Source: Syntrophales bacterium
Lineage (GTDB): Bacteria > Desulfobacterota > Syntrophia > Syntrophales > UBA2210
Direction: 5' to 3'
Length of the DNA stretch: 64,000 nt
Assembly: GCA_963666365.2 (NCBI GenBank)
Contig: CAXXNF010000002.1
Span: forward strand, 1,088,001-1,152,000
Part shown: one piece after another, positions 15,001 to 18,000 of the stretch
Layout of the letters: the number at the start of each line of letters is the position of its first letter
How positions within the stretch are numbered: the first letter of the stretch is position 1
Program-made: the position numbers

Positions 15001-18000
15001 TTCTGTCTACTTTTTCTGTAAAGACTTTGCCTTTTTCGATCGCACCTCTGCCCTTTTCCATGATGTCGCCTGTATGAGTCCTGACGTCCTCTATGGTGGT
15101 TTGAATTTTGTCGGAAAATTCATTCGGCGCCTTGTAGTAGAGGTACCCGGCAATGCACAAAAGCACTATCCCGAGTATTAAAACCAGTTTGATGATTTTT
15201 TTCATCAGGAAGTAGAAAATTAAAAGCGCCAGAAGCGCCATCGCCATCAGAGCGACCGGGTTGGCAGACAGATACTGCAATAAATCGTCCAACGGGAATA
15301 CCTCCTGCAACGGCGTTAGAGGGTGATAACCGGTCTAAACAGAGGAATGGCGACCTCTTCGGTTCTGTCATCCCAGACCACTTCAACCGGCATGTTGCAC
15401 CGCACCTCATCGGGCCGGCATCCGATTATATTTGTGATGAGATGAGGCCCTTCATCAAGTTCCACTATCGCCGCCACATAGGGAACCTCTCCGGTGAATG
15501 CGGGATGAAAGGCCTTGTGATACACGACATAGCTGTACACTCGTCCCCTCCCTGACGCAACAGTCCATTCCGAGTTTCTTGAGCAGCACTTCGGGCAGAG
15601 AAACGAAGGCGGCATACGAAAGGCGCCACAGTTGCGGCACTGCTGGATTTTCAGCTGGTGTGTTCCACAGGCGTCCCAGAACGGCTTTGTATCGGCATTG
15701 ATGCCCGGCAAAGGTTTAATATCGCTCATGATATTACCACCTCCTCAGTATGTAACAGGCATGGGTTTGCAATATGCCCCCATTATCGCTGCACAGAATT
15801 ATTTCCGGTTCTCTTGTGTCGGTGGCGGGACCCAGTTGCCGACCGCCGCAACGACCCATGAGCTGCATGACTGCTTCCGTAAGCGGCGTCAGTCCCATAT
15901 GATAGGCTTCCGAAAGCTGTCCCCCTGAGGTATTGACCGGCATGGCGCCTCCCGGTTCGATTGTTCCGCCGGCAAACCATCCCTCTCCTTCGCCGGGACC
16001 GAAAAATCCATAATCCTGAAGAGTTATTTCAACCGTGTAGGTAAAACAGTCGTAAATTTCACAGGCATCTATATCGGAAAGGGCAATTCCCGCCATATGA
16101 AGGGCGTCCGCACCCGCTCTCACGGCGCCGGTGGGGCCGGCAAGATGGAGGGCCGTCTGAAGATCAGCCGACGGGTTGTGCTGCCCCATCCCCATAATCG
16201 TGACAAGATTGTGTTTGAGGTCGCGGGCGCGTTCAACCGTTGTTACTATGCAGGCCCTTCCTCCATCATTGATCAGGCAGTTATCGGGAAGGCGGAATGG
16301 TTCGACCAGCCATTTTGAATTGAGATACTCTTCCTCGGTCATCGTGCGATCATGCATTATGGCCCGTGGATTGAGGTTCGCCCACTTTCGCTGCCCTACG
16401 GCGATGTGTTTCCATGTATCGGGACCGGTATGAAATTCATGCATCGCCCTGCGTGCGGCCATTGCATATCCCCCCGTTGCACCAAAAAGACCCCATATCG
16501 CTTCGTCACCGCTCATTTCCGTGAGCATTTTTACCATGCTGTCGCCAGAATGAGCGTACGAGAGAAGCACATAGTTACAAAGACCCGATTCAAGCGCGCC
16601 AACTGCGTGCAGTAAATGACTGCGCGATCAATTCGCGTCCTGCGCCATAAATGTGGGAGATAATCCCAGCTGCTGCGCCACAAGATAGGGCGTCACATCC
16701 CTTTCACCGGTCGGTGCAATAAAATGTCTGTAGAGAATAAGCCCGTCGATGTCCCGGGGGTTTAACCCCGCATCTTCAATCGCCTGCGCGCATGCCTCCA
16801 GATGAAAACTGAGCGTTGTTCTATCCGACACGTTCCCCTGAGGGGTATATCCTACCCCGACTATGGCATATTTGTCCTTCACACTCATAGGGCCCTCCTT
16901 TTCGACTGCAGTATTTCCGTTTATATGCACACGACTCGAATTCCCCTAGAGAGAGGCATTCAGCTCGTCCCCTGATTCATTGATTTCATTGTCCCCCGTG
17001 AGCTGTTTTTTCAGTTTTTCGATTTCCTTACGCGCCCTTACAAGATCATCCGTGGTAATTTTCAGGCGTTCGACAAGAATTTCCGAGAAAATACGATAGA
17101 GCATACAGGAAAATACAAGCTTATCTTTTCCCGCTAACTTCTCCAAAGCTGCCACATCCGTTGCAATACACACCGTCTCGCTTACCGCATAGGCGGAGGC
17201 CGAGCGGGGCGCCCCTCCCGCCGCCGCCATCTCACCGAAAATATCGCCCCTTCGCTTAATAAGCGTGACCTCTCTATTGTCTTTCACGATCCTGACAGAT
17301 CCCGATAAGAGCAGATAGAGGAGAGTATCGCGGTTTCCCTCATCAATGATATATTCCCCGGCGTCATATCGATTGATTGTGCTCAACTTCAGAGCGCCTT
17401 GAAACTCTTCTTCCGAGAAGGATTTTAAAATCGGCAGCTCTCGAACTTGTGACATCAACTCCTGACTCAGCTCGACAAAGTTCGATTGAAGCATCGTTTT
17501 ATTCCACCTTTCTTCTGCCGTATATAGTGAACTCTATTACACCAAAAAGGGCATCTATATCAATAAGTGAGGCGAAGCGACACTATGATCTTGCCTGTTC
17601 CCCCTTCAGTCTCATAGCTCGATGCTGTCAAAAGGGCGTAGAATTCTGATGGTCGCCTTCGGCACCGATGCCCCTATGCGCTCTATAAAGGACTTCATTT
17701 TTAAAAAAGGAAGTGAAGCTACGTACCCGTCTTTTCCAACCGGAAGGGTAAAATCATCAAAGTGGAAGGGGATGATAAGCGACGGCTTCAACATCTGCAG
17801 GAGGGATGTCGTGTATTCTGCTGCATATTCCCATCCGGGAACACACAGGCACAGCACGTCACACCATCGCCCTTCAAGTTCCGATTCGATAAAGTTCGCA
17901 CTCCCCACATGAATAAAGGAAATCCCGTCGATTTCAAGATGCGGCATAAACATCCCGCCCAATCGATACTCTTTCGCCTTCAAGGGAAGACGGGCTGAGG

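Follow-up and report, generated by a model that had tools for sequence, protein, structure and literature searches.

Here we describe a gene of a Syntrophales bacterium that very probably encodes an intact selenoprotein of the thiolase fold, with selenocysteine (Sec) at the position of the thiolase nucleophile, a reading for which we document a recoding signature, the place of the Sec residue in the fold, conserved active-site residues and linkage to a DUF35 gene. The gene lies on the minus strand of the stretch of 64,000 nucleotides that was analysed (contig CAXXNF010000002.1; hereafter, the window). The frame opened by its ATG ends at a TAA (15736..15734) after 384 residues and is interrupted by a sole in-frame TGA, at residue 87; translation thus bears out the single reading frame with Sec87, in the motif QDANUSRSH, that the initial annotation had proposed. 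Both the N- and the C-terminal halves of the thiolase fold are present, as judged from the match to Pfam Thiolase_C_1 (residues 243-383) and from full-length alignments to NCBIfam models and to solved structures. The alignment of NCBIfam thiolase models from end to end over the UGA, also claimed initially, was recovered with PRK06158 (residues 4-381), although these models score below their cut-offs. The positions of the features are collected in Table 1.

Table 1. Features of the selenoprotein locus (positions count from the first nucleotide of the window)
Feature	Position	Strand	Basis or description
Predicted thiolase-fold selenoprotein gene	15734..16888	-	384 codons and TAA, read through a single TGA
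Ribosome-binding site AAGGAGG	16894..16900	-	5 nt upstream of the ATG at 16888; read from the sequence
In-frame TGA, codon 87, predicted Sec	16628..16630	-	TGA/Cys column of orthologs; alignment with the nucleophile Cys of thiolases
Candidate bacterial SECIS hairpin GCACGC-AGUUG-GCGCGC	16594..16610	-	Helix conservation, low synonymous diversity, spacing
YDCF motif codons (Y279-D280-C281-F282)	16043..16054	-	Invariant in 25/25 aligned orthologs
Y329 codon, where thiolases have the 'GHP' histidine	15902..15904	-	HMMER alignments to 7yvy, 6esq and 6ok1
DUF35 partner gene (137 aa)	15316..15729	-	Pfam zf-ChsH2 (PF12172) and OB_ChsH2_C (PF01796)

The thiolase-like gene is followed by its DUF35 partner, as had been noted before and as the two Pfam domains confirm. 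The DUF35 gene begins 4 nt past the stop codon of the gene upstream and is preceded by GAGGAGGTGG; its product carries a C4 zinc ribbon (C31-x2-C34-x10-C45-x2-C48) and then an OB fold. The pattern of the ribbon, C-x2-C-x10-C-x2-C, matches one quoted in PMC12329534. Of 30 loci examined, 28 have a DUF35 homolog directly downstream of the thiolase-like gene, and the remaining two are cut off.

The TGA codon is shared by most of the close relatives of the gene, and the others have Cys in its place. Matches of at least 55% identity in 201 genomes of the order numbered 29, of which 22 contain one TGA and seven none, similar to the figures first reported; in the 28 loci of the order that were fetched, codon 87 is TGA in 21 and TGC or TGT (Cys) in seven, in agreement with the claim that U or Cys occupies one and the same column. 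Across all phyla, the best 80 loci comprise 25 with TGA at the column, 31 with Cys, and 24 that are distant homologs or a fragment. The Sec forms, which span anaerobic Thermodesulfobacteriota (Syntrophales, Desulfobacterales and Desulfatiglandales), fall in a clade of 52 rows, 44 with Sec and eight with Cys, that is well supported (SH-aLRT 100). The clades sister to it consist of Cys forms throughout, and the tree requires at least four changes of state. Every row of a 75-row clade of the tree has either Sec or Cys at the column, with no other residue, and the clade marked by [C/U]-x-R, YDCF and E-A-Y was found in at least five phyla.

TGA is the normal stop codon of eight of the 19 Pfam-supported ORFs in the window, which we count in favour of recoding at codon 87. 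The TGA at codon 87 could instead be a true stop, in which case the locus would encode an 86-aa peptide and a separately started C-terminal protein, or be a pseudogene or the product of a sequencing error. Gene callers do cut the gene at this place, a fragment of 267 aa in the databases matches the C-terminal part at 94% identity, and a GTG at 16570 could open an ORF of 278 aa. We nevertheless consider a true stop very improbable: many assemblies share the identical TGA at codon 87 (46 sequences, of which 40 are distinct), relatives have Cys at the column, and the coding sequence is conserved both before and after the UGA, the 19 codons between it and the next possible start including the invariant residues R89, A95, L99, G102 and C104. 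Moreover, the whole stretch is identical, letter by letter, in contigs from two runs of two studies, either of which may be the source of the DNA.

A GC-rich hairpin is found about 20 nt downstream of the UGA, with an apical loop, AGUUG, that starts 23 nt after it. The initial annotation gave the 3′ arm of this hairpin as GCGUGC and reported compensatory changes in nine of nine sequences; neither statement was borne out. The arm in the window reads GCGCGC, so that pair 3 is an A·C mismatch and five pairs remain, and both sides of the helix have changed in one of 40 distinct Sec-form sequences. In this set the 6-bp helix is 93% paired, three of its pairs are invariable, and pair 3 is mismatched in 14 of the 40. 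We thus regard the candidate hairpin as a conserved rather than a covarying element. The model of the bacterial SECIS that we applied specifies a loop of 3-9 nt with a G among its first two nucleotides, a stem of at least 4 bp, a spacing of 16-37 nt and an MFE of -7.5 kcal/mol or lower (PMC13188914, legend to Fig. 2). The hairpin in the window fits the rules for loop, G and spacing, but has an energy of -6.5 kcal/mol against the -7.5 of the model. Under these constraints, a hairpin of -6 kcal/mol or lower is formed by 39 of 41 distinct Sec-form sequences, and one of -7.5 or lower by 35 of 41; the corresponding proportions are 24% and 15% for 410 dinucleotide shuffles, and 47% and 31% for 36 Cys forms. 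The downstream hairpin is missing from most Cys orthologs, apart from three that fall within the Sec clade.

Synonymous diversity among 20 Sec-form genes, 0.53 overall, reaches its minimum of 0.318 in the 12-codon interval at residue 90, and all of the 15 lowest 12-codon intervals begin at residues 76-96. In seven Cys forms the diversity in the interval at residue 90 is 0.617, the dip being limited to the Sec forms. Folding of the 81 nt around the TGA is no better than that of shuffles (z = -0.48), and the MFE structure chooses another hairpin, so that comparative data are needed; the support for a SECIS element consists of conservation and suppressed synonymous change, not of covariation. The genome has the genes for Sec insertion: the scores of selA (608 bits), selB (361 bits) and tRNA-Sec (76 bits) exceed the curated cut-offs, as does that of SelD. 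SelD and four FdhA-like genes of the genome have one in-frame TGA each, and the spacing between the UGA and the start of the hairpin loop is similar in the FdhA and SelD genes. UGA codon 87 would be decoded as Sec by SelB and tRNA-Sec, guided by the short GC-rich hairpin.

Where, then, does Sec87 lie in the fold? In HMMER alignments to 7yvy and 6esq, archaeal-type thiolases of known structure, U87 falls on the Cys of the stretch 'EAACAS'. Searches for paralogs in the genome returned four sequences by tblastn and six with an HMM built from the ortholog alignment A1, and the U column is Cys in all six; the part of the earlier claim that concerned the nucleophile Cys was thus recovered, whereas its set of 13 paralogs was not reproduced. 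Together, the thiolase, paralog and ortholog alignments support the placement, already proposed in the initial annotation, of Sec at the nucleophile Cys column of a DUF35-partnered thiolase-like protein. All of the 25 aligned orthologs have U/C87, R89, Y279, D280, C281, F282, the N319-TSGG stretch and Y329; residue 330, next to the invariant Y329, is variable in alignment A1. Both thiolase histidines, those of HDCF and GHP, are replaced by Tyr (Y279 and Y329, respectively) in all 25. As described in PMC12329534, SCP2 thiolases carry an HDCF motif with an acid/base Cys, the Cys of xDCF being the proton donor and a second Cys the nucleophile, and the corresponding motif of the Sal aldolase holds a Tyr/Cys catalytic dyad. 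An AlphaFold2 model built on the 25-row alignment was poor, with a mean pLDDT of 64.6 and values below 50 at residues 86-88, 280-284 and 304-331. Judging from the alignments, the active site is not that of a canonical thiolase, and the protein belongs to a YDCF, Tyr-for-His branch beside the Ltp2 and Sal aldolases. The term 'thiolase' thus denotes here the fold and the position of a residue, not a demonstrated activity.

The Cys orthologs, annotated as 'thiolase family protein' or 'acetyl-CoA acetyltransferase', occur, among others, in Desulfurella acetivorans A63 (CP007051.1) and in Dehalococcoidia, Aquificota and Clostridia. They are of equal length and 49-80% identical, and have the YDCF and E-A-Y motifs, the [U/C]-x-R loop and a downstream DUF35 gene; the difference is the Cys in place of the Sec. 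Our searches found no characterised Cys ortholog. The best solved relative is PDB 4u4e, deposited as 'Thiolase' and uncharacterised, which matches residues 4-381 (2.1e-63) and shares the stretch Y-D-x-F-T-Y-T-V. It has, however, a Ser at the Sec column, as had been noted earlier, and a second Ser for Cys281 (YDSF), and is thus without either chalcogen residue. The closest characterised relatives of known structure are two aldolases, ahead of the thiolases. The first is the steroid side-chain retro-aldolase TcLtp2-ChsH2 (PDB 6ok1, 6.1e-45), whose partner, ChsH2, is also a DUF35 protein. Tyr294 in the YDHF motif of TcLtp2 corresponds to Y279, and Tyr344 to Y329 by offset (15 residues in both); the enzyme, as described in PMC12329534, has a His in place of Cys281, C3 side chains of steroids as substrate and a context of steroid degradation. 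No Sec form of TcLtp2 is known, and HMMER puts an Ltp2 Cys at the U column within a stretch that is poorly aligned. The second is the bile-acid side-chain retro-aldolase CtSal-Shy (PDB 9myr, 5e-40), again with a DUF35 partner; the catalytic dyad Tyr302/Cys304 of its YDCY motif (PMC12329534) corresponds to Y279/C281. The differences, according to the same source, are a Gly at the nucleophile place, a Gln at the place of Y329, and a DUF35 domain fused to a MaoC hydratase, whereas the DUF35 gene in the window stands alone. The archaeal-type thiolases share the fold and the type of partner, and their nucleophile Cys and HDCF Cys correspond to U87 and C281; they are far more distant (3e-23 to 4e-17; 3e-23 for 7yvy and 1e-17 for 6esq) and have His where the protein has Y279 and Y329.

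These relationships raise the possibility, which we regard as the less likely one but not a slight one, that the protein is a real selenoprotein that acts as Ltp2 and Sal do, cleaving a 3-hydroxyacyl-CoA by a retro-aldol (or aldol) reaction, with Tyr279 as the base and Cys281 and/or Tyr329 as the acid. Sec87 would then not be acylated but would lie beside the beta-oxygen, where it could assist, for example in proton transfer, or transiently capture the aldehyde product as a selenohemiacetal. The residues that such a reaction needs, a catalytic Tyr and an acid, are there and do not vary (Y279, C281 and Y329), the nearest characterised structures are aldolases, and both of these have a DUF35 partner. 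However, the place of the nucleophile is Gly in CtSal, where a Cys is not needed (PMC12329534), whereas Cys or Sec is kept in all 75 rows of the clade, and the change to Sec at this column suggests that the residue takes part in the chemistry.

The neighbourhoods of the gene bear on the same question. In 15 loci of the order, of 10-17 kb each, only the DUF35 gene recurs widely, the other neighbours being unrelated genes, of housekeeping or of varied kinds; no MaoC-type hydratase or steroid genes were found among them, which argues against aldol cleavage. On the other side, in four Clostridia loci the gene directly upstream of the Cys ortholog encodes an acylating aldehyde dehydrogenase, which would suit an aldehyde-forming aldolase. 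An aldehyde:ferredoxin oxidoreductase gene, 3.5 kb off in the window, is also in keeping with an aldolase. In Clostridial Cys-form operons a CoA-disulfide reductase homolog, above the NCBIfam cut-off, follows the DUF35 gene (five loci by clustering, named in three). This gene, as well as the presence of two conserved chalcogen residues in the active site, would be in keeping with a redox pair of Sec87 and Cys281 (a selenenylsulfide), serving as a regulatory switch or in a redox or CoA-thiol-linked reaction, and not in acyl transfer. Most known prokaryotic selenoproteins are indeed thiol-oxidoreductase-like (PMC13188914, section 7). Yet the protein has no UxxC or CxxU motif, residues 87 and 281 are 194 positions apart in the sequence, and the 15 loci show no conserved redox partner next to the Sec forms, and we consider a redox pair improbable.

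Instead, we favour a covalent, thiolase-type mechanism at Sec87, to which we give about an even chance. The product of the gene would be a thiolase-fold acyl-CoA enzyme in complex with the zinc-ribbon/OB (DUF35) protein, and Sec87 would most likely be the nucleophile, in place of the thiolase cysteine. The selenolate of this residue would attack the acyl-CoA carbonyl to give an acyl-selenoester enzyme intermediate in the cleavage or formation of a carbon-carbon bond. The acid/base would be Cys281, in the YDCF motif, and Tyr279 and Tyr329 may take the hydrogen-bonding roles of the two histidines of ordinary thiolases. For the Sec forms of anaerobic Thermodesulfobacteriota, a widespread family, we propose, more tentatively, that Sec serves as a covalent, non-redox nucleophile in carbon-carbon chemistry, by way of an acyl-selenoester, in a thiolase-fold site in which both activating histidines have become tyrosines.

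The statement in the initial annotation that there is no Sec thiolase in papers or in a recent catalogue agrees with our own searches. The phrase 'selenium-containing thiolase' had no match in the literature search. A thiolase of Clostridium kluyveri was reportedly found to contain selenomethionine, which would be selenium incorporated unspecifically and not as Sec. In one selenoprotein family that has been predicted computationally, we take the Sec position to be that of the acyl-accepting nucleophile of its Cys enzymes. That family, listed in the table of PMC13188914, is unrelated to the protein described here in fold and reaction. A thiolase-family selenoprotein is absent from the catalogue of 119 families published in 2026 (PMC13188914), as well as from the results of the literature searches, and one review names 'thiolase' among selenium enzymes without giving detail (PMC6480557).

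Gene callers split genes of this family at the TGA, and the databases hold fragments or list its members wrongly as 'acetyl-CoA acetyltransferase', so that the enzyme is missed or misread when the metabolism of these organisms is reconstructed. The [C/U]-x-R / YDCF / E-A-Y clade is unstudied, and has an active site of mixed thiolase and aldolase character. The occurrence of Sec and Cys forms of one enzyme offers a natural test of what selenium gains in acyl transfer, where the possible gains are in nucleophilicity, leaving-group ability and resistance to oxidation. The selenoproteins known from prokaryotes are, for the great majority, redox proteins. If our reading is true, a family of carbon-carbon-bond enzymes joins the known selenium proteins, and a selenoprotein of the thiolase superfamily would bring selenium into the carbon-carbon chemistry of acyl-CoA compounds among anaerobes that live syntrophically or reduce sulfate.

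Reading through the in-frame TGA at codon 87, translation of the thiolase-fold gene yields a protein of 384 residues, which NCBIfam thiolase-type models span from end to end (for example PRK06158, residues 4-381, 6.8e-73) and in which residues 243-383 match Pfam Thiolase_C_1. Every NCBIfam thiolase-type match lies below its curated cut-off, and the protein therefore belongs to no named equivalog. The gene for the DUF35 partner starts 4 nt past the stop codon, preceded by GAGGAGGTGG, and its translated product carries a zinc ribbon (C31-x2-C34-x10-C45-x2-C48). As set out below, the TGA almost certainly encodes selenocysteine (Sec87 or U87).

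Features of the selenoprotein locus and other TGA-containing genes of the genome (window positions, except for G000:C1 and G000:C2, contigs of the window's own genome)
Feature	Position	Strand	Remarks
Thiolase-fold selenoprotein gene	ATG 16888 to TAA 15736..15734	-	translation; interrupted solely by the TGA
RBS AAGGAGG	16900..16894	-	5' of ATG 16888; sequence read
Codon 87, TGA	16630..16628	-	in-frame; context QDAN-U-SRSH
Hairpin GCACGC-AGUUG-GCG(U/C)GC (candidate bSECIS)	16610..16594	-	about 20 nt past the UGA
DUF35 gene, 137 aa	15729..15316	-	Pfam zf-ChsH2 and OB_ChsH2_C
116-aa ORF	14960-15310	-	no Pfam match; hydrophobic stretch; directly 3' of the DUF35 gene
470-aa ORF	9524-10936	-	no Pfam match
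639-aa protein, two SDR-like halves	18447-20366	-	C-terminal half matches 3-oxoacyl-ACP / acetoacetyl-CoA reductase models
Aldehyde:ferredoxin oxidoreductase gene and 385-aa gene	20444-23424	+	13-nt overlap; oxidoreductase divergent from the selenoprotein gene
SelD and four FdhA-like genes	G000:C1:483557-484486; G000:C2:584514-587555; G000:C2:1986518-1989577; G000:C1:231506-232225; G000:C2:981084-981818		in-frame TGA and hairpin

A search of 201 genomes of the same order gave 29 matches at 55% identity or more, of which 22 contain a single TGA and 7 contain no TGA. Loci were fetched for 28 of them (a count that omits L046 and L047, 36% paralogs); TGA was found in 21, always at codon 87, and TGC or TGT occupied that codon in 7. 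A scan of all phyla, with one genome per prokaryote species, returned 590 relatives; among the best 80, the residue-87 column held TGA in 25 and Cys in 31, the remaining 24 comprising a fragment and distant homologs in which Gly, Ala, Ser or some other residue stands there. The TGA relatives are labelled Syntrophales/Smithella, Desulfobacterales, Desulfatiglandales, unclassified 'Deltaproteobacteria' and, in one case, 'Proteobacteria'; the Cys relatives come from Dehalococcoidia/Chloroflexota, Aquificota, Campylobacterota (including Desulfurella acetivorans A63), Clostridia and others. That the TGA is a true stop, splitting the gene in two, is unlikely, because the 19 codons that separate it from GTG 16570, where the next in-frame start lies, encode invariant residues (R89, A95, L99, G102 and C104).

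The genome encodes selB (361 bits), selA (608 bits) and tRNA-Sec (76 bits), all scoring above cut-off. Moreover, SelD and four formate-dehydrogenase-alpha-like genes each contain a single in-frame TGA with a hairpin after it, so that the host is a multi-selenoprotein organism. An altered genetic code was ruled out as the source of the in-frame TGA, since TGA also serves as an ordinary stop in the window, terminating 8 of its 19 Pfam-supported ORFs. At another locus (L052:10919-13648), two adjacent ORFs 12 nt apart jointly resemble one molybdopterin oxidoreductase / formate dehydrogenase alpha subunit, and are probably another Sec gene divided at its TGA by ORF calling.

The initial annotation had described compensatory changes in 9 of 9 hairpins downstream of the UGA. 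This is not borne out: across the 40 distinct sequences among 46 Sec-form segments, 93% of the cells in the six helix pairs are standard, three pairs are invariant and a true double change, G-C to A-U, occurs in a single locus (L067), while the third pair is mismatched in 14 of the 40, the window's included. The helix is thus conserved, not covarying, and its conservation is owed in part to protein coding (H-A-V-G-A/V). Synonymous change is the better test here. Across 20 Sec-form genes (the truncated L045 being omitted), codon pairs for the same amino acid differ in 0.53 of cases gene-wide; all of the 15 lowest 12-codon windows begin at residues 76-96, and the minimum, 0.318 at residue 90, compares with 0.617 at that place in 7 Cys forms. 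The rules for a bSECIS ask for a loop of 3-9 nt with a G within its two opening positions, 4 bp or more and a spacing of 16-37 nt (PMC13188914). Under a simple implementation of these rules, 35 of 41 distinct Sec forms yielded a hairpin of -7.5 kcal/mol or lower; the share was 15% among 410 shuffles and 31% among 36 Cys forms. The hairpin of the window itself fits in its loop and, at 23 nt, in its spacing, but has an energy of just -6.5 kcal/mol; the hairpin loops of FdhA and SelD in the same genome lie at a similar distance from their UGA. Summed depth over contigs of four public runs reached 27-71 units in the bin 16588-16640, which holds the UGA and the hairpin, against a baseline of about 2-6, and relatives in the sampled runs are therefore most alike in DNA at this stretch. 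The whole stretch is present without difference in two runs from two studies, though the DNA may itself derive from either.

A quick maximum-likelihood tree was built from 104 rows, 99 of them different, some genomes having entered through both searches (the partial L045, L120 and L125 were omitted, as were L124, L046 and L047). All 44 Sec rows fall within one clade of 52 rows, together with 8 Cys rows (SH-aLRT 100), and this is nested in a clade of 75 rows (SH-aLRT 100) whose remaining members are all Cys. At least four Sec/Cys changes are required; the simplest reading, on a tree whose root was not inferred, is that Sec was gained once and reverted three times. Three Cys forms inside the Sec clade (L020, L073 and L085) retain the hairpin GCA(C/U)GC-loop-GCG(U/C)GC, which looks like a remnant SECIS left by a recent Sec-to-Cys change.

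Among solved structures, the closest are 4u4e, an uncharacterised 'Thiolase' (2.1e-63), and the DUF35-partnered aldolases TcLtp2 (6ok1; 6.1e-45) and CtSal (9myr; 5e-40), followed by the true thiolases 7yvy (3.1e-23) and 6esq/6et9 (1.1e-17) and by the benzoylsuccinyl-CoA thiolase BbsB (7pxp; 4.4e-17). U87 aligns to the Cys of the 'EAACAS' nucleophile loop in 7yvy and 6esq, and all six paralogs found in the same genome with an HMM of the orthologs have Cys in this column. Judged from the alignments, the active site apart from residue 87 is not thiolase-like: Y329 is aligned to the histidine of the thiolase G-H-P/A motif and Y279 takes the place of the His of the SCP2-thiolase HDCF. Invariant positions in 25 aligned orthologs (of the 28 loci, without the truncated L045 and without L028 and L029, which nearly duplicate L025) include U/C87, R89, Y279-D-C281-F, N319-T-S-G-G and Y329; residue 330 is variable. 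According to PMC12329534, HDCF is found in SCP2 thiolases and YDCF in trypanosomal SLPs; in TcLtp2 the base is Tyr294 of YDHF and the acid Tyr344, and in CtSal, where Gly stands at the position of the thiolase nucleophile, Tyr302 and Cys304 of YDCY are the residues used. The two tyrosines of TcLtp2 match Y279 and Y329, offset by 15 residues, and the CtSal dyad matches Y279/C281, whereas 4u4e, unlike the window protein, lacks both chalcogen residues (Ser at the Sec column; YDSF). These matches, with that of U87, unite aldolase-type residues and both thiolase chalcogen positions in one protein, and the predicted active site is a thiolase/aldolase hybrid.

We prefer, at about even confidence, covalent catalysis by Sec87, because it occupies the thiolase nucleophile position, because Cys or Sec is retained there in all 75 clade rows, across five phyla, and because a switch from Cys to Sec is typical for a residue doing chemistry. 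The selenolate would attack the carbonyl of an acyl-CoA and hold the acyl group as a selenoester, with C281 as putative proton donor/acceptor and the tyrosines as hydrogen-bond donors. The main rival, aldol chemistry of the Ltp2/Sal type, is a more tentative proposal; the tyrosines, the closer kinship to aldolases and the gene context in Clostridia speak for it. There, a four-gene block comprises an acylating aldehyde dehydrogenase, the Cys ortholog, DUF35 and a CoA-disulfide-reductase homolog (by clustering, 4 loci have the dehydrogenase and 5 the reductase). This last gene, with the pair of chalcogen residues, is consistent with a redox or regulatory role, which we consider improbable.

In gut Clostridia the block occurs at L152:6253-10565 and L153:6601-10917 and also in L110, L111, L113, L116 and L118, and its reductase homolog passes the NF007123 cut-off. 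The block has split transketolase and fructose-6-phosphate-aldolase-like genes beside it in one genome and LarA in another. This context may hold a clue to what the Cys form uses as its substrate. Around the Sec forms no conserved neighbour other than DUF35 was found, and their context points to no substrate; the 116-aa ORF is not conserved in orthologous loci. The same-strand genes 5' of the selenoprotein gene encode a cNMP-binding protein, an MBL-fold protein and the double-SDR protein, the last of which, being upstream on the same strand, may be functionally linked to it; as clues to the substrate, these and the aldehyde:ferredoxin oxidoreductase are hints only. In the 385-aa protein, a class II aldolase domain forms the C-terminal half and the N-terminal 200 residues have no family match.

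Thiolase, acyltransferase and DUF35 entries are absent from the 119 prokaryotic selenoprotein families and subfamilies in Table 1 of a 2026 review (PMC13188914). Nothing relevant on a Sec thiolase, acetyl-CoA acetyltransferase or DUF35 selenoprotein emerged from the part of the literature searched, reports outside it being possible, and the NCBIfam models matched by the protein include no selenoprotein model. The best 120 of 1306 database proteins are named 'thiolase family protein', 'acetyl-CoA acetyltransferase' or 'hypothetical'; a full-length Cys-form motif is matched by 110 of them, and a C-terminal fragment of 267 aa, 94% identical, is also among the 120. As far as we have seen, the family is uncatalogued; it is a real family of selenoproteins within the thiolase superfamily, is widespread, and has Sec at the nucleophile position.
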